From: Sphingomonas adhaesiva
Lineage (GTDB): Bacteria > Pseudomonadota > Alphaproteobacteria > Sphingomonadales > Sphingomonadaceae
Direction: 5' to 3'
NCBI RefSeq assembly: GCF_036946305.1
Contig: NZ_JAQIJJ010000005.1
Span: forward strand, 266,052-330,051
Length of the DNA stretch: 64,000 nt
A program made the translations under genes and the position numbers. Positions 5,480-63,727 of the stretch are shown one piece after another. The notes beneath the pieces are model-generated. The model worked only from the letters and a program-made list of their open reading frames with translations, did no database searches and was not told where the DNA came from. Position 1 is the stretch's first letter, and each line of letters opens with the position of its first letter.

Positions 5480-5534
5480 CGTTTGGCGCGCCTCCCGGCA
5501 ATTTTACTCGCAAGGCTCTTGAGCATAAACTCCC

Positions 5535-5629
5535 CGTCATTCCCGCGAAGGCGGGAGTCCATTGCCGCTGCCCGTCCGGCTCTTGCCGCGACCTGCGCGA
5601 ATGGATTCCCGCCTCCGCGGGAATGACGG
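5535..5629. repeat. R2 family palindromic element (CGTCATTCCCGCGAAGGCGGGA...)
   Basis: Left arm CCGTCATTCCCGCGAAGGCGGGAGTCCATTG. The reverse complement of the right arm is CCGTCATTCCCGCGGAGGCGGGAATCCATTC. Related copies at 20702 and 39500. Confidence 0.8.
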
Positions 5630-6815: not shown

Positions 6816-6838
6816 ATCCTCCCCGGCACGGGGAGGAT
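6816..6838. repeat. solo hairpin ATCCTCCCCG-GCA-CGGGGAGGAT
   Basis: Perfect 10-bp stem. Its first 21 nt are identical to the outer hairpin of the element at 46777. It lies between the ivd stop (6804) and the mccB start (6842). Confidence 0.75.
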
Positions 6839-6841
6839 CTG

Positions 6842-8434
6842 ATGACCGGCCCCACCCTCCCCACCGCGCTGTCGCGCGACGACGCGACCTTCCGCGCCAA
6901 TGCCGACCACAACCGCGCGCTTGCCGACGAGCTGCGCGCCCGCGTCGCGCACGCCGCACGGGGCGGCAACGCCAGAAGCCGCGAGCGCCACGTCGCCCGC
7001 GGCAAGCTCCTGCCCCGCGACCGAGTCGAGCACCTGCTCGACCCCGGCACCGCGTTCCTCGAAATCGGCCAGCTGGTGGCGAACGGCCTCTACGACGACG
7101 AGGTGCCGGGCGCCGGCATGATCGCGGGCATCGGCACCGTCAGTGGCCGTCTGGTCATGATCGTGTGCAACGACGCGACCGTGAAGGGCGGCACCTATTA
7201 CCCGCTTACCGTCAAGAAGCATCTGCGCGCCCAGGAGATCGCGCAGGAGAACCGCCTGCCCTGCATCTATCTGGTCGATTCGGGCGGCGCCAACCTGCCG
7301 CACCAGGCGGAGGTCTTCCCCGACCGCGAGCATTTCGGCCGCATCTTCTTCAACCAGGCGAACATGTCCGCGCTGGGCATCCCGCAGATCGCGTGCGTCA
7401 TGGGCAGCTGCACCGCGGGCGGCGCCTATGTGCCGGCGATGTCGGACGAGACGGTGATCGTCCGCAACCAGGGCACGATCTTCCTCGCCGGCCCGCCGCT
7501 GGTGAAGGCCGCGACCGGCGAGATCATCTCCGCGGAGGAACTGGGCGGCGCGGAAACGCACGGTCGCCGCTCCGGCGTGGTCGACCATGTCGCCGAGAAT
7601 GACGAGCACGCGCTGTCGATCATCCGCGACATCGTCGCCACTTTGCCTCCGTCGACCGCCGCGCTGCCCGCCGGCGCCCCGCCGCTGTACCCCGCCGACG
7701 ATCTCTACGGCATCGTCCCGCAGGACGTCCGCGCGCCCTATGACGTCCACGAGGTGATCGCGCTACTGGTCGACGGCAGCACCTTCCACGAATTCAAGTC
7801 GCTCTACGGCGCATCCCTGGTGTGCGGTTTCGCCAACATCCACGGCCAGCCGGTCGCGATCCTCGCCAACAACGGCGTCCTGTTCAGCGAGAGCGCACAG
7901 AAAGGCGCGCACTTCATCGAACTGGCCTGCCAGCGGAAGGTCCCGCTGCTGTTCCTCCAGAACATCTCCGGCTTCATGGTCGGCGGCCGCTACGAGGCGG
8001 AGGGGATCGCCAAGCACGGCGCGAAGCTGGTGACCGCGGTCGCCACCGCGAGTGTGCCGAAAATCACGATCCTGATCGGCGGCAGCTTCGGCGCGGGCAA
8101 TTACGGCATGTGCGGCCGCGCGTATTCCCCGCGCTTCCTGTTCACCTGGCCCAATGCGCGGATCAGCGTGATGGGCGGCGAACAGGCCGCCAGCGTACTC
8201 GCCACCGTCCACCGCGACGCCGACACCTGGACCCCGGAGGAAGCCGACGCCTTCAAGGCTCCCGTCCGCGCCAAGTATGAGGAGGAGGGCAACCCCTATT
8301 ACGCCACCGCGCGGCTGTGGGACGACGGCGTCATCGACCCGGCGCAGACCCGCGACGTCCTCGGCCTCGCGCTACGCGTCTGCCACAACGCCCCCATCCC
8401 GGAGCGCGCCACCTTTGGCGTGTTCCGGATGTGA
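6842..8434 (+). CDS. mccB: methylcrotonoyl-CoA carboxylase beta (carboxyltransferase) subunit
   Basis: 530 aa of the carboxyltransferase family ([31 protein letters not shown]), positioned between ivd and mccA. Confidence 0.95.
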
Positions 8435-8445
8435 GGGAACCGACG

Positions 8446-8874
8446 CTATCGTTCCTCCCCGAGCTCGTCTCGGGGAGGGGGACCGCCCGGCGCAGCCGGG
8501 TGGTGGAGGGGCAGCCGCGACACGGCGAGTGCCAGCACCGCCGCGGCCGTTCTATCCGCATCTGCCAGCACGCGCGCCGCTGCGATGCGCACGGTCCTGA
8601 TACCCGCCGCGGCAAACCAGGCATCTCGCCGCGCGTCCCGATCCTGTCGATCGGCGTGTCCCTGCCCGTCGATCTCCATCGCGAGACGCGCGTCCAGACA
8701 GTAGAAGTCGAGCACGTAAGCGCCTGCCGGATGCTGTCGCCGAAACTTGCACCCGTTCGGCGCGCCACGCAGCCGCTGCCAAAGGAGCACCTCCGGCAGC
8801 GTCATGTCACGCCGCAAGCGTCGGGCACGCTTCACCCCGCCGCGGCGCGCCCGTGGCGCCACATCCCTCAGCAT
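8446..8874 (-). CDS. DUF559 endonuclease-domain protein (Vsr-like PD-(D/E)xK fold)
   Basis: Reads ARRLRRDMTLPEVLLWQRLR ... FRRQHPAGAYVLDFYCLDARLAMEIDGQGH ... RDAWFAAAGIRTVRI. I prefer the ATG at 8874. The last ~20 codons and the stop are read through the left repeat. Confidence 0.8.
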   Translation of the reverse strand: MLRDVAPRARRGGVKRARRLRRDMTLPEVLLWQRLRGAPNGCKFRRQHPAGAYVLDFYCLDARLAMEIDGQGHADRQDRDARRDAWFAAAGIRTVRIAAARVLADADRTAAAVLALAVSRLPLHHPAAPGGPPPRDELGEER

Positions 8875-8937
8875 CACGTCCACCCCTCCACCATGCTTCG
8901 CATGGTCCCCCTCCCCGAGACAAGCTCGGGGAGGAAC
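8451..8937. mobile_element. 487-bp element with ~60-bp modular terminal inverted repeats carrying a DUF559 gene
   Basis: 8451-8484 matches the reverse complement of 8937-8904 at 33/34 positions (GTTCCTCCCCGAGCT[C/T]GTCTCGGGGAGGGGGACC). Each end then has a variable short hairpin followed by GGTGGAGGGG. DUF559 is the only ORF inside. Mobility is inferred, not shown. Confidence 0.5.
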
Positions 8938-8948
8938 AGGAATCACCC

Positions 8949-10787
8949 ATGATCCACTCCCTCCTGATCGCCAACCGCGGCGAGATCGCCTGCCGCATCA
9001 TCCGCACCGCGCGCGCGATGGGTGTGCGCACGATCGCGGTCCATTCCGCGGCCGACGCACAGGCGCTCCACGTCCGCGAGGCGGACGAGGCGGTTGCGAT
9101 CGGCCCGGCCCCGGCGCGCGAGAGCTATCTCGTCCCCGAGCGCATCCTCGCCGCCGCGCGCGAGACGGGCGCGCAGGCGATCCACCCCGGCTACGGCTTC
9201 CTGAGCGAAAATGCCGACTTCGCGCAGGCCGTCATCGACGCCGGGCTGATCTGGGTCGGCCCCAACCCCGACAGCATCCGCGCGATGGGGCTGAAGGATG
9301 CCGCCAAGGCGCGCATGATCGCCGCCGGCGTCCCCGTCACGCCGGGCTATCTCGGCGAAGACCAGTCCACCGACCGCCTCGCCGCGGAGGCCGCGCAGAT
9401 CGGCTACCCCGTCCTCATCAAGGCGGTCGCGGGCGGCGGCGGCAAGGGGATGCGGCAGGTCGACGACGCCGCCGCCTTCGCCGACGCGCTCGCCTCGTGC
9501 CGGCGCGAGGCCGCCGCCGCGTTCGGCGACGATCGCGTCCTGATCGAGAAGTACATCCTCTCGCCGCGCCATATCGAGGTGCAGGTGTTCGGCGACCGCC
9601 ACGGCCAGGTCGTCCACCTCTTCGAGCGCGACTGCTCGCTCCAGCGCCGCCACCAGAAGGTGATCGAGGAGGCGCCCGCCCCCGGCATGGACGCCGCCAC
9701 CCGCGCCGCGGTGTGCGACGCCGCGGTCACGGCCGCGCGCGCGGTCGACTATGTCGGCGCGGGCACGATCGAGTTCATCGCCGACGCCAGCGAGGGACTG
9801 CGCGCCGACCGCATCTGGTTCATGGAGATGAACACCCGCCTTCAGGTCGAACATCCCGTGACCGAGGCGATCACCGGGCAGGATCTGGTCGAATGGCAGC
9901 TCCGCGTCGCCGCCGGCGAGCCGCTGCCCTGCACGCAGGACCAGCTCGCGATCCACGGCCATGCGATCGAGGCGCGGCTCTATGCCGAGGATCCCGCCAA
10001 GGGCTTCCTGCCCTCGATCGGCACGCTGGAGGCGTTCGACCTGGGGGATGACGTCCGCGTCGATACCGGCGTCGAGCAGGGCAGCATCATCTCGCCCTTC
10101 TACGATCCGATGATCGCCAAGCTGATCGCGCACGGCGACACCCGCGAGGAGGCGCGCGAGCGGCTCGCCGATGCGCTGGACGAGGCGATCGTCTGGCCGG
10201 TGCGCAGCAACGCGGGGTTTCTGGTCGAGGCGCTCGACCACCCCGATTTCGTCGCCGGTCGCGTCGACACCGGGCTGATCGCGCGCGAGGGCGAGGCGCT
10301 GATGCCGCCCGCGCAACCCAGCGAGGAAGCGCTCGCCGCCGCCGCCGCCGCGCTGGCAGGTCCGGCGTTCGCACCCGGCTTCCGGCTGAACGCGGCTCCG
10401 CGGCGCGAGGGCATGTTCCTGCTCGACGGCGCGCCGGTCGCAATCGATTTCGCCGATGTGCCCGCACCCGACGAACGCGAGGACACCGCGGTGCTGATCT
10501 CCGAAGGCGGCCAGACCTGGGCACTGGCGCCGTACCGCGCCGCGGGCGGCGCGGCCGGCGGCGCGGCGGACGGCGCGATCCTCGCGACCATGCCGGGCCG
10601 CGTCATCGCGGTCGAGGTCGCCGCGGGCGCGACCGTGACCCGCGGGCAGAAGCTGCTGACGCTGGAGGCGATGAAGATGGAACACAGCCTGACCGCGCCC
10701 TTCGACGGCACGCTGGCGGAACTGAACGTGGAAACCGGCGCGCAGGTGACGGAAGGCACGCTGCTGGCGAAGATCGCGGCGGAATAA
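8949..10787 (+). CDS. mccA: methylcrotonoyl-CoA carboxylase alpha (biotin carboxylase + BCCP) subunit
   Basis: Starts MIHSLLIANRGEIACRIIRTARAMG, has an ATP-grasp core and the C-terminal biotinylation motif LEAMKMEH. The track start at 8853 lies inside the repeat. Confidence 0.95.
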   Translation: MIHSLLIANRGEIACRIIRTARAMGVRTIAVHSAADAQALHVREADEAVAIGPAPARESYLVPERILAAARETGAQAIHPGYGFLSENADFAQAVIDAGLIWVGPNPDSIRAMGLKDAAKARMIAAGVPVTPGYLGEDQSTDRLAAEAAQIGYPVLIKAVAGGGGKGMRQVDDAAAFADALASCRREAAAAFGDDRVLIEKYILSPRHIEVQVFGDRHGQVVHLFERDCSLQRRHQKVIEEAPAPGMDAATRAAVCDAAVTAARAVDYVGAGTIEFIADASEGLRADRIWFMEMNTRLQVEHPVTEAITGQDLVEWQLRVAAGEPLPCTQDQLAIHGHAIEARLYAEDPAKGFLPSIGTLEAFDLGDDVRVDTGVEQGSIISPFYDPMIAKLIAHGDTREEARERLADALDEAIVWPVRSNAGFLVEALDHPDFVAGRVDTGLIAREGEALMPPAQPSEEALAAAAAALAGPAFAPGFRLNAAPRREGMFLLDGAPVAIDFADVPAPDEREDTAVLISEGGQTWALAPYRAAGGAAGGAADGAILATMPGRVIAVEVAAGATVTRGQKLLTLEAMKMEHSLTAPFDGTLAELNVETGAQVTEGTLLAKIAAE

Positions 10788-10789
10788 AA

Positions 10790-10896
10790 GCCCCTCCCCT
10801 TCAGGGGAGGGGTTGGGGTGGGGCAGTCACAAGCCACGGGCGCCGGTCTCGGTGAGACCTCCCCCACCCCCTACCCCTCCCCTGAAGGGGAGGGGC
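10790..10896. repeat. R3 family palindromic element (GCCCCTCCCCTTCAGGGGAGGGG...)
   Basis: Left arm GCCCCTCCCCTTCAGGGGAGGGGTTGGGGTGGGG. The reverse complement of the right arm is GCCCCTCCCCTTCAGGGGAGGGGTAGGGGGTGGGGG. Related copies at 63629 and a half copy at 48730. Confidence 0.8.
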
Positions 10897-22261: not shown

Positions 22262-22378
22262 TTACGCAGCAAGCAGATTGCACTTGCACAAAAACGTGCT
22301 GCGATGCACAAGGACTGTGCCTTTCAGGCATCCTCTCCTAAAAACTTTTCGGCCGGGCCTTGCCCGGCCTTTTTTTTG
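22262..22378 (+). ncRNA. candidate small RNA or 5' leader/attenuator (5' end undefined)
   Basis: Lower-GC stretch with no credible ORF. It has hairpin TGCCT-TTC-AGGCA (22319-22331), then single-stranded CU-rich TCCTCTCCTAAAAAC, then a strong intrinsic terminator. No + strand CDS lies upstream. Confidence 0.35.
22351..22378 (+). terminator. strong intrinsic terminator (orphan)
   Basis: GGCCGGGC-CTTG-CCCGGCC followed by T8 (22370-22377). Confidence 0.75.
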
Positions 22379-22585
22379 GCCTCGCGCTAGGCTATTGCCT
22401 GTGGGCTCGCACCCGAAAACAGATCAGCGCGCAGGATGGGATGTCGCCGGTAGGACCGGCATTCGCGGCCAGACGGGGTGAGCGGCGCCGGACCCGCTCC
22501 CCCCGGTCCAGTCATCACGCTTTACAGTCTCCGCCGGTCGCGCCGGCCGCTTTCCGCCCGGCCGCAACTGTGCCACGCTGCCGGC

Positions 22586-46773: not shown

Positions 46774-46776
46774 CAA

Positions 46777-46910
46777 ATCCTCCCCGGCACGGGGAGGGGG
46801 ACCAGCCGCAGGCTGGTGGAGGGGGGCTTCCGCAGGCGAAGCGCGTCGTGGCGCTCCCCCTCCACCACCGCGCTACGCGCGGCGGTCCCCCTCCCCGTCC
46901 CGGGGAGGAT
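46777..46910. repeat. 134-bp cargo-less palindromic element with the same end architecture as the DUF559 element
   Basis: Left end ATCCTCCCCGGCACGGGGAGGGGGACC-AGCCGCAGGCT-GGTGGAGGGG. The reverse complement of the right end is ATCCTCCCCGGGACGGGGAGGGGGACC-GCCGCGCGTAGCGCGGT-GGTGGAGGGGG. It fills the cysD-cysN spacer. Confidence 0.8.
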
Positions 46911-48729: not shown

Positions 48730-48785
48730 TCTCGGTGAGACACCGACCCCTCACCCCGACCCTCTCCCCGGAGGGGAGAGGGAGC
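48730..48785. repeat. half copy of R3-like element
   Basis: CTCGGTGAGACACCGACCCCTCACCCCGACCCTCTCCCCGGAGGGGAGAGGGAG resembles the right half of 10790-10896. The left half is degenerate. Confidence 0.4.
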
Positions 48786-63628: not shown

Positions 63629-63727
63629 GCCCCTCCCCTTCAGGGGAGGGGTCAGGGGTGGGGGGAGCCTCGCAGAGAGTGACGCCTTTGACTGCCCCAC
63701 CCCAACCCCTCCCCTAAAGGGGAGGGG
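63629..63727. repeat. R3 family palindromic element
   Basis: GCCCCTCCCCTTCAGGGGAGGGGTCAGGGGTGGGGG ... CCCCACCCCAACCCCTCCCCTAAAGGGGAGGGGC. Confidence 0.8.

Follow-up and report, generated by a model that had tools for sequence, protein, structure and literature searches.

A YcjD-like DUF559 gene enclosed by BoxC/PIT-type repeats in the mccB-mccA spacer of Sphingomonas adhaesiva: a candidate selfish nuclease cassette

The locus

The stretch of DNA analysed here (the window) covers 64 000 nt of the Sphingomonas adhaesiva genome and includes a leucine catabolism operon. A single element, at 8446-8948, makes up the spacer between its mccB gene (6842-8434, plus strand; methylcrotonyl-CoA carboxylase carboxyltransferase subunit, Pfam Carboxyl_trans, E 1e-153), which forms the upstream flank of the insertion, and its mccA gene (8949-10787, plus strand; biotin carboxylase/BCCP subunit, Pfam CPSase_L_D2, Biotin_carb_N/C and Biotin_lipoyl), which forms the downstream one. 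The element contains a minus-strand ORF of 142 codons (8446-8874; ATG at 8874-8872, stop TAG at 8448-8446) for a DUF559 nuclease. Its left end (8451-8514, read on the plus strand) and its right end (8875-8937, read on the minus strand) carry the same BoxC-type triplex motif, i.e. Y block, hairpin 1, R block, hairpin 2 and mirror block, and include inverted repeat arms of 34 nt (8451-8484 and 8904-8937), matched at 33 of 34 positions (97% complementary). An earlier note on this DNA had described such a 33/34 inverted repeat, with a hairpin and then a conserved block at each end, and a DUF559 ORF of 142 codons between mccB and mccA; the arms, the folding, the positions of the block GGTGGAGGGG (8502-8511, with its complement at 8883-8892), the Pfam match and the flanking genes all bear this out.

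Neither a sigma-70-like promoter nor an intrinsic terminator or terminator-like T-run was found in the 8300-9100 region. The Rfam 15 covariance models gave no match over the repeats, their sole match in the window being suhB/mmgR (22312-22384), and PADLOC returned a weak DpdF match only.

Structure of the repeat ends and their place in the gene

Each end folds into two hairpins, with energies of -19 to -24 kcal/mol and z-scores of -3.9 to -6.1. Hairpin 1 occupies 8454-8478 in the left end and 8910-8934 in the right end; hairpin 2, which is variable, is found at 8482-8504 (GCA loop) and at 8890-8906 (GAA loop, GCGAAGC), respectively. The left end shows a pyrimidine block, CCTCCCC (8454-8460), its purine partner, GGGGAGG (8472-8478), and a mirror third block, GGAGGGG (8505-8511), the complement of which, CCCCTCC, is at 8883-8889 in the right end. 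This pyrimidine/purine/mirror-purine succession is present with 0 mismatches in both ends and in a gene-less doublet described below, and the string CCTCCCC-N11-GGGGAGG occurs 2 times in the window for 0.03 expected.

The ends thus share the three-block layout of the BoxC/PIT/TMECO repeats, a class of intrastrand-triplex elements from E. coli and further bacteria (Holder et al. 2015, PMC4666352) in which T may replace A in the mirror block; this class, like the three-block motif itself, had escaped the earlier note. They are likewise intergenic, repeated and highly conserved, and their inverted pairs often join two subtypes, the A+B hybrids matching the E. coli description. Unlike the known repeats, they have a mini-hairpin of 17-23 nt with a GNA loop between blocks 2 and 3, a longer first loop, and they enclose a gene. 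Loop 1 measures 5-11 nt and loop 2, which contains the extra hairpin, 20-26 nt, where short loops (∼3-5 nt) define the motif; because of these long loops and of the extra hairpin, the element is best described as a variant. Canonical copies with short loops are present elsewhere in the window. The folding computed for the ends concerned hairpins only, and formation of a triplex by the single strand is predicted from the block pattern.

Comparison within the Sphingomonadales showed that hairpin 2 is paired in 98% of the cells, with changes on both sides of the stem in 43 cells versus 9.2±2.4 after shuffling (0/500), and gave a covariation score of 0.266 versus at most 0.056 in slid controls. 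More than 60 distinct perfect stems were found for the mini-hairpin, with GNA loops retained.

The repeats are part of the working anatomy of the gene: its GGAGG ribosome-binding site and its final 22 codons are both provided by them. Between the GGTGGAGGGG sequence, a likely Shine-Dalgarno, and the ATG there are 8 nt, a spacing conserved in 24/26 species; the start codon is therefore beyond this block, whereas the earlier note had placed it 5 nt within the right repeat. At the other extremity, the reading frame runs through the left repeat for codons 121-142, so that the tail RLPLHHPAAPGGPPPRDELGEE is encoded on the minus strand of this repeat. The earlier assignment of the last ∼20 codons and of the stop to this repeat stands for the codons, but the TAG falls outside the 34-nt arm, by 2 nt. 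No other part of the protein is as conserved across the family as this tail. It shows zero synonymous changes, versus a pS of 0.60 in the core, and its conservation at the three codon positions (0.94/0.96/0.95) lacks the periodicity seen in the core (0.80/0.83/0.57); moreover, the frame in which this repeat is read differs in other family members. The repeats are, then, conserved as DNA and not as codons.

The DUF559 protein

The ORF matches Pfam DUF559 (PF04480) with an E-value of 2.4e-27 and 95.4 bits (cut-off 20.6) over profile positions 5-105 of 109. MTES_1575 and DUF2726 are its only other Pfam matches, among which there is no transposase domain, Y1 (HUH) included. A protein 100% identical to it is annotated in Sphingomonas adhaesiva. 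The AF2 model (pLDDT 74) has an alpha/beta core and leaves the tail unstructured, and Foldseek related it to 3hrl (E 4.5e-5, TM-score of 0.80 normalised to the target), to 3r3p and, weakly, to 1cw0 (E 0.65). Profile similarity to I-Bth0305I (3r3p) was also detected (E 7.5e-5). Identity to YcjD amounts to 36% and the invariant residues are held in common; R21, E28, D56, F57, E67, D69, G70, H73, D80, R83 and R96 do not vary from E. coli to Deinococcus. The predicted product is accordingly classed as a YcjD-like nuclease of the Vsr-fold PD-(D/E)xK type. With NCBIfam PRK09767, the YcjD equivalog model, the score is 65.2 bits for a cut-off of 218, so the protein is a relative of YcjD and not an equivalog. 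E. coli YcjD, NGO0050 of N. gonorrhoeae (3HRL), Vsr and Caulobacter VsrA belong to the same protein family. The protein differs from Vsr in that it does not match PF03852, the Vsr family, and lacks a cytosine methyltransferase partner at its locus, the neighbours being mccB and mccA instead of a C5-cytosine methyltransferase gene.

With an omega of 0.12, the gene is under purifying selection. This value and the invariance of catalytic-type residues from E. coli to Deinococcus exclude a decayed pseudogene. The GC3 of the ORF core is 0.77, versus 0.92 in mccA and mccB, in agreement with the greater share of A/T-ending codons counted previously.

A preferred insertion site in the Sphingomonadales

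A survey of 80 Sphingomonadales species (81 loci, the window included), in which a strict pattern was applied to both ends, revealed the 5′ end in 71 loci, the 3′ end in 72 and both in 67 of the 81. The mccB-mccA junction is the site of a DUF559 cassette in 62 of the 80 species, and the inner length between the ends is constant, at 377±3 or 350 nt. In metagenomic relatives the same junction is either filled, empty or, in one case, occupied by a decayed half element; the empty junctions, found in 16 of these relatives, measure 2-14 nt. A clean gene-less doublet was not seen in any of 80 metagenomic mccB-mccA junctions, hence the cassette did not arrive there by simple homing into a doublet already resident. 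By these comparisons, the unit is an insertion into a spacer otherwise 2-14 nt long. No target-site duplication was evident when filled and empty junctions were compared or in the outer flanks of the 80 loci. The inverted repeat extends to about TCAAT...ATTGA, which means that the TGA stop of many relatives is part of the repeat.

The earlier note had set out how its proposal might fail: DUF559 genes not systematically bracketed by the repeats, repeats present at the junction without the gene, or a decayed gene. Bracketing was found in 67/81 loci and again in 8/9 loci of a fresh cross-phylum sample, the relatives offered no clean case of the second situation, and the third is dealt with above; together these results support the view of gene and repeats as one insertable unit.

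Cassettes were also found at glyQ|glyS, pntAA|pntAB, trpG|trpD, parE|parC and in the hpa and paa operons (the window itself has no glyQS or pntA junction), with several sites and subfamilies per order and, at some loci, two cassettes within 8 kb. A third subfamily is represented by P0132, from Sphingomicrobium; P0002 is not a paralogue but the orthologue from a second S. adhaesiva assembly. Among plasmids, tblastn, truncated by its low-complexity filter, gave at least 19 records.

At mccB-mccA, 41 cassettes are antisense and 15 sense to the operon. The predominance of antisense cassettes, together with the lack of a sigma-70-like promoter, was counted against the cassette reading developed below.

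Turnover of cassettes at a fixed site

The dS of the DUF559 core is 1.20, versus 0.35 for mccB and 0.29 for mccA, and yet the repeats remain 95-97% identical. Such a high core dS between near-identical repeats suggests that cassettes have probably been exchanged at a fixed site; local hypermutation could in principle produce the same figure without replacement. In two Blastomonas genomes with the cassette at this site, the MccB proteins differ by 2.6% and the DUF559 proteins by 45%, so that, going by their sequences, near-identical hosts hold different cassette lineages at the same junction. The co-phylogeny of DUF559 and MccB is weak (Mantel r 0.146).

The presence of both orientations at one junction raises the possibility of an invertible, phase-variable cassette, in which recombination between the inverted repeats would reverse the gene's orientation with respect to the operon promoter and so switch expression of the nuclease; DUF559 is in addition 14-fold enriched among predicted programmed-inversion targets in a published listing. 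We regard this as very improbable. Orientation follows the cassette lineage, no DUF559 pair less than 29% divergent differing in it, which led us to reject frequent inversion, and there is no linked recombinase gene.

On the whole, cassette exchange or homing fits the evidence better than cut-and-paste does. The related fold, the profile similarity and the small stand-alone ORF recall the Vsr-like (EDxHD) homing endonucleases such as I-Bth0305I, and the presence or absence of the gene at a precise site among relatives and an allele turnover faster than that of host genes are likewise as in homing endonuclease genes. The difference is that the DUF559 gene is outside any intron or intein and is bracketed by structured inverted repeats which are also found alone.

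Gene-less copies

A convergent gene-less doublet of 130 nt with a 32-nt spacer lies at 46777-46910, in the cysD-cysN junction on the minus strand (-67 kcal/mol, z -10); no locus retrieved had a DUF559-filled cysD-cysN junction. A solo hairpin, CCTCCCCGGCACGGGGAGG, is present between ivd and mccB (6818-6836, plus strand), its GGAGG 5 nt ahead of the mccB ATG. The earlier note had taken the first for an element with the same ends as the nuclease unit and the second for its outer hairpin. Both are real, but their hairpin 1 is the short variant CCTCCCCG-GNA-CGGGGAGG, unlike the long one which flanks the gene. Directly past the mccA stop, at 10791-10895, there is a canonical BoxC/PIT-like triplex doublet (CCCCTCCCC / GGGGAGGGG / GGGGTGGGG), which belongs to the same repeat superfamily as the ends of the nuclease element and has no gene; a second canonical doublet is at 63630-63727.

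About 640 kb of flanks contained 82 further half-elements, mostly as convergent pairs, A+B combinations included, with 24 gene-less doublets versus 3 containing a gene. Element sizes are bimodal, the inner sequence being of 16-50 or of 350-380 nt, and the gene-less doublets occupy other tight gene junctions. Bimodal sizes and terminal inverted repeats common to gene-containing and gene-less elements are also features of pairs of MITEs and autonomous ISs, the model put forward in the earlier note. What is left of it is one insertable unit with gene-less counterparts. Derivation of the doublets by internal deletion is not evident, their spacers being short palindromes without clear gene remnants; there is no recognisable transposase and, since target-site duplication is lacking and DUF559 is not known to act as one, a classical MITE or transposon mechanism is without support.

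The excess of gene-less doublets is what would be expected of a domesticated partnership of the REPIN-RAYT kind, in which a resident, vertically inherited and non-mobile host gene has a product that copies or maintains the doublets in trans, the repeats next to it marking its origin or regulating it. REPIN-RAYT systems, made up of REP doublets and a REP-associated tyrosine transposase, likewise associate one small nuclease-type gene, flanked by inverted hairpin repeats, with many gene-less inverted doublets, and persist for long, largely within a lineage. The maintenance of the mccB-mccA position in 62/80 Sphingomonadales species, the purifying selection, an orientation stable inside close clades and, in E. 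coli, the single ycjD for 23 BoxC copies would all agree with it. We nevertheless consider it unlikely: MccB co-phylogeny is weak (r 0.146), closely related hosts have unrelated cassettes and dS reaches 3.5-4 times the flank value; moreover, empty junctions are common, sites and subfamilies are multiple within an order, with two cassettes within 8 kb at some loci, and Deinococcus species differ in the hpa-operon junction used. The two systems also differ in the enzyme, a Vsr-fold PD-(D/E)xK protein instead of a Y1 HUH transposase, in the position of the DUF559 gene, which lies within the doublet and whose reading frame enters it, and in the turnover of several paralogous cassettes at one site.

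Recurrence of the pairing across phyla

Short DUF559 genes flanked by such motifs were found in E. coli (ycjD), Deinococcus, cyanobacteria, Photobacterium and Neisseria. The triplex-motif finder was written after the E. coli and Azospirillum examples had been seen, and the cross-phylum samples are small, with sites shared by L182 and L184 and by L185 and L186. With these limits, motif enrichment at the gene was 18-fold in the first sample and 19-fold in the fresh one, where 8 of 9 loci were positive (3.15/kb within the gene ±60 nt versus 0.165/kb more than 1 kb away), and the motifs are arranged symmetrically about the gene. At the Hyella and Picosynechococcus loci the motif is absent. In Deinococcus, whose species carry the cassette at differing hpa-operon junctions, no other copies of the flanking motifs occur in 20-50 kb. 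In E. coli, the C-terminus of ycjD runs into a degenerate BoxC, and TMECO no. 9 is 168 nt away. E. coli, with its 23 BoxC copies for one ycjD, whose own flank is degenerate, was counted against the cassette reading. Taken as a whole, the sequences surveyed indicate that the pairing of gene and repeat recurs across phyla. No link of DUF559 or ycjD to BoxC-type repeats was found in the literature searched, including that on MITEs and Sphingomonas.

One could object that gene and repeats do nothing more than share an intergenic niche, the gene coding for a common Vsr-like nuclease, active in repair or in structure processing, and lying among REP-like hairpins that act as ribosome-binding, terminator or insulator modules. 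The DUF559 domain of Caulobacter VsrA, which has a functional tie to a cytosine methyltransferase, and a cassette found directly upstream of a DNA methyltransferase gene could be understood in this way, as could the Shine-Dalgarno sequences that the ends give to neighbouring genes and the occurrence of such repeats alone. This explanation seems improbable to us in view of the 18-19-fold enrichment and the symmetrical layout, of the isolated Deinococcus motifs, of ORFs which enter the repeat in several frames and of cassettes that turn over at a fixed site; in addition, the S. adhaesiva locus has neither a C5-methyltransferase neighbour nor a terminator-like T-run.

A possible mechanism and its consequences

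The reading we favour, with a confidence somewhat above even, is that 8446-8948 is a selfish nuclease cassette, in which a YcjD-like DUF559 gene is centred in a convergent pair of BoxC/PIT-type repeats that serve as its working ends. The nuclease would recognise or cut the structured repeats, whether folded as hairpin, cruciform or triplex, possibly in single-stranded form, and recombinational repair over the ∼60 bp of repeat homology would then copy or swap the cassette. The process would thus be homing or gene conversion and not cut-and-paste, and the part given here to the nuclease in mobility is one we infer. Gene-less doublets may be targets of the nuclease, or else passengers on which it acts in trans. 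Insertion between co-transcribed genes might be tolerated because the repeat ends carry a Shine-Dalgarno for the downstream gene.

More tentatively, as a possibility to which we give less than even weight, YcjD-like DUF559 nucleases could be the cognate enzymes of BoxC/PIT/TMECO repeats across bacteria and form with them a distinct class of mobile elements, in which folded DNA (a hairpin or triplex, perhaps single-stranded) is recognised by a Vsr-fold nuclease and which spread by nuclease-triggered recombination into junctions of co-transcribed genes. Known since the early 1990s, these repeats are conserved in many bacteria and raise local genetic variation; the 2015 survey found no mobility functions near them (PMC4666352). 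DUF559 would be a candidate partner for a repeat family which has been for 30 years without an assigned enzyme, origin or spreading mechanism. Conversely, DUF559 is a very large family (31 024 cluster representatives in our profile search) without function, and YcjD and NGO0050 are likewise without an assigned one. With the two paired, a single purified protein of 14 kDa and a handful of oligonucleotides would suffice to test both. If true, there would be, beside REP/RAYT, a second and mechanistically different repeat family with a dedicated nuclease.

The same pairing would explain the small 'endonuclease' ORFs wedged into operons between genes for subunits, as at mccB|mccA, glyQ|glyS, pntAA|pntAB, trpG|trpD and parE|parC. 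It would also explain the odd proline/glycine-rich tails of annotated proteins and spurious fused ORFs.

Anatomy of the element between mccB and mccA

The insert of ∼500 bp that separates mccB (6842-8434, upstream) from mccA (8949-10787, downstream; both assigned by Pfam) contains a single ORF, of 142 codons on the minus strand (8446-8874), whose product is a DUF559 protein (Pfam, E 2.4e-27) 100% identical to an annotated S. adhaesiva protein. As the earlier note had read from the sequence, this ORF is bracketed by 34-nt inverted ends (8451-8484 versus 8904-8937, 33/34 complementary), and the contrast in codon usage which it had described also holds, GC3 being 0.77 in the ORF versus 0.92 in the flanking genes. 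Each end contains two hairpins (folding z-scores of -3.9 to -6.1); the pattern of the first, CCTCCCC-N11-GGGGAGG, is present twice in the window versus 0.03 expected.

Bracketing of DUF559 genes by inverted repeats, proposed in the earlier note as the mark of a mobile element, proved systematic. Eighty loci were fetched, one per species, all from Sphingomonadales or close relatives; of the 81 loci including the window, 71 have a copy of the repeat 5′ to the start codon under a strict pattern, 72 have one at the ORF's 3′ end, and 67 have both. The spacing between inner blocks is constant within a subfamily, 377±3 nt for one and 350 nt for another. The sequence GGTGGAGGGG is located 8 nt 5′ of the ATG in 24 of 26 species and probably serves as the Shine-Dalgarno of the DUF559 ORF. 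At the other extremity, the left repeat encodes the C-terminal tail, RLPLHHPAAPGGPPPRDELGEE, which is the best-conserved part of the protein in an alignment of 22 homologues and is unstructured in the AF2 prediction. The frequency of the majority base at codon positions 1, 2 and 3 is 0.80, 0.83 and 0.57 in the core, and 0.94, 0.96 and 0.95 in the tail; between the window and a second S. adhaesiva assembly (L164) the tail is without synonymous change and the core has a pS of 0.60. Elsewhere in the family, this repeat is translated in another frame (e.g. ...PSTALRAVPLP...). The repeat is conserved as DNA and not as protein.

The ends are a variant of the BoxC class

On the G-rich strand, each end reads, 5′ to 3′, CCTCCCC - loop - GGGGAGG - GGGACC - (short stem, GNA loop, stem) - GGT - GGAGGGG, block 3 being an exact mirror of block 2. 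The same three-block layout is that of the E. coli BoxC repeats, later re-described as PIT elements and TMECO intrastrand-triplex motifs; the 23 copies of E. coli K-12 are intergenic without exception and form inverted pairs at five sites, where two subtypes are always combined (PMC4666352). Canonical short-loop triplex motifs (CCCCTCCCC / GGGGAGGGG / GGGGTGGGG) are also present in the window, as convergent doublets directly 3′ of the mccA stop (10791-10895) and at 63630-63727, and as a single copy at 48747-48782. Because of the common layout and of these canonical copies, we class the ends, on sequence grounds, as a variant of this known type of repeat, differing from the canonical copies by a mini-hairpin added in the second loop. 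When translated, the canonical motifs of the window give ‘PLKGRG’-type peptides, known from spurious ORFs.

The mini-hairpin covaries: 98% of cells are paired, changes on both sides are seen in 43 cells versus 9.2±2.4 in shuffles (0/500), and the covariation score is 0.266 versus at most 0.056 with slid partners. More than 60 distinct perfect stems exist among 225 copies, and the loop on the G-rich strand is always GAA, GCA or GTA. GNA triloops of the d(GCGAAGC) type form unusually stable DNA mini-hairpins, which hints at a single-stranded DNA form of the repeats.

Insertion and turnover at a fixed site

The cassette occupies the mccB-mccA junction in 62 of the 80 genome loci; where a full-length MccB match was available, it is antisense to the operon in 41 cases and sense in 15. 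We also inspected 80 metagenomic mccB 3′ ends for junction content: 16 are empty, with 2-14 nt from stop to next start, about six carry a DUF559 cassette, one a decayed half-repeat, and several unrelated small ORFs. Insertion of small genes at this junction is general: the unrelated ORFs, present in other lineages (L082, L088, L089, L104, L106, L107 and L120), include a ∼160-aa signal-peptide protein. The comparison of filled with empty junctions suggested in the earlier note revealed no evident target-site duplication. That note had also envisaged repeats accumulating there independently of the gene; among the 80 metagenomic junctions no clean gene-less doublet was seen, only the decayed half-repeat. 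This argues against simple homing into resident doublets, and the cassette seems to arrive together with its own repeats.

Distances between DUF559 proteins are barely correlated with those between MccB proteins (Mantel r 0.146; 28 of 2000 permutations as high). In a Blastomonas pair whose MccB differs by 2.6%, the DUF559 proteins differ by 45%, and the two cassettes, at the same junction and in the same direction, have different hairpin-1 types. Between the window and L164, nucleotide identity is 91.6% for ivd, 91.1% for mccB (dS 0.35, omega 0.07), 91.9% for mccA (dS 0.29, omega 0.09), 95.3% for the left repeat and 96.8% for the right repeat, versus 73.9% for the DUF559 core, with a dS of 1.20 and an omega of 0.12. 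These values indicate that the protein is functional and under purifying selection, not the product of a decaying pseudogene as the earlier note had considered, and that its alleles diverged long before the hosts did. Cassette replacement by recombination inside the conserved repeats is the simplest reading of these comparisons; a local hypermutation giving rise to the divergent core is a possible alternative. An inversion switch could also be imagined, given the two orientations, and one study counts DUF559, without comment, among families enriched for predicted inversions. However, orientation tracks cassette lineage, since no DUF559 pair less than 29% divergent differs in orientation, and this disfavours frequent switching.

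Gene-less doublets and other junctions

About 640 kb of flanks contained 82 further half-elements, mostly in convergent pairs: 24 pairs have spacers of 16-50 nt, and another three, with spacers of 353-377 nt, contain further DUF559 genes; there are no intermediate sizes. The gene-less doublet at the cysD-cysN junction (46777-46910) and the solo hairpin 5′ of mccB (6818-6836), both pointed out in the earlier note, are real; the note's description as a whole requires small corrections. In both, an outer GGAGG precedes an ATG by 5 nt, that of mccB for the solo hairpin (6818-6841) and that of cysN for the doublet (46774-46779, minus strand), so that repeat ends can supply the Shine-Dalgarno of the downstream gene, putatively held in an anti-SD/SD hairpin. 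An ordinary Vsr-like enzyme amid regulatory hairpins is one rival explanation. Further cassettes reside in glyQ|glyS and pntAA|pntAB (the latter annotated on a plasmid), and in some lineages the ORF overlaps the stop and start codons of its neighbours. In L166 (2501-4351), a cassette is directly upstream of a gene for a 436-aa N6_N4 DNA methyltransferase.

Association across phyla

From E. coli to Deinococcus, R21, E28, D56, F57, E67, D69, G70, H73, D80, R83 and R96 are invariant, and by this criterion the proteins are one family. The type DUF559 gene, E. coli ycjD, ends in ...RRSPSP* and runs into a degenerate BoxC; BoxC/TMECO no. 9 comes after a DUF559 3′-end remnant, both within 168 nt of ycjD. 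This partial duplicate (...ETVLENIRQGLNRP..., K-12 1351299-1351406, L167 2800-2907) looks like the relic of an earlier cassette. In four Deinococcus species inverted triplex motifs, the only ones in 20-50 kb, bracket the gene; three of the species have both copies intact, and in Deinococcus sp. NW-56 one copy has decayed. These cassettes are inside hpa (L173, L179, L180) or paa (L178, paaD|paaZ) catabolic operons, at a junction that differs by species; their motifs are divergent, with the hairpin adjoining the gene, rather than convergent. The distance from motif to gene is 40 nt in Photobacterium, 45 nt in Synechocystis and 205 nt in N. gonorrhoeae; the Pseudanabaena gene is flanked by motifs, the Azospirillum gene has a doublet directly upstream, and no triplex motif was found at a Picosynechococcus locus. 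Cyanobacterial DUF559 ORFs with flanking triplex doublets (L177 8849-13714; L168, L169; L181 2301-2678) are in or beside BREX/DUF1156 genes and between cas4 and cas6; the Pseudanabaena annotation merges all into one 4.9-kb ‘DUF559’ CDS.

Because the motif finder had been written after these first cases, we drew a fresh sample of nine proteins from a profile search, picked by taxon and record size before their DNA was seen. A full motif overlaps the ORF or is at most 12 nt away in 8/9, usually as a convergent pair whose 3′ copy overlaps the ORF end; only the ninth, a Hyella contig of 34% GC, is without a full motif there. Motif density is 3.15/kb in the gene ±60 nt versus 0.165/kb beyond 1 kb, a 19-fold enrichment (18-fold in the first sample) with a Poisson P of 8e-14, although motifs are not independent. 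Placement tests, which are conservative when loci are short, gave Fisher P values of 1.8e-4 (fresh sample) and 1.2e-4 (five first-sample lineages). The contexts are again junctions of co-transcribed genes: trpG|trpD, parE|parC and cas4|cas6. Other junctions of the trp operons that hold a cassette in trpG|trpD contain small PDDEXK_3 (PF13366) nuclease genes (L185 11443-11814; L186 5976-6332 and 8494-8886), possibly nuclease cassettes of a second family that occupies operon junctions.

Possible mechanism

The finding is a nuclease gene nested in, and dedicated to, a family of repeats. The predicted model of the protein matches NGO0050 (3hrl; TM-score 0.80, normalised to the target), and both fold and sequence profile match the catalytic domain of the homing endonuclease I-Bth0305I (E 7.5e-5). 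These nearest characterised relatives support a homing-type role; strand transfer itself is not an expected activity of a stand-alone PD-(D/E)xK nuclease. The substrate of the nuclease would be the structured repeats; the cassette would then be copied or swapped by recombinational repair through repeat homology, with gene-less doublets as possible targets or passengers. A domesticated partnership of the REPIN-RAYT kind is a rival to this homing-type scheme. In the literature searched we found no description linking the DUF559/ycjD family to BoxC/PIT/TMECO-type repeats, and there is a real chance that the gene-repeat unit is a distinct class of element.

Two other features of the window may be mentioned. 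A third palindromic doublet family is found upstream of ivd (5534-5568 / 5595-5629; 35-nt arms, 89% complementary), with cores, ATTCCC-N8-GGGA(G/A)T, that resemble Neisseria dRS3-type repeats. The Rfam suhB/mmgR small RNA (RF00519) is matched at 22312-22384 on the plus strand, with 51.2 bits versus a gathering score of 41.
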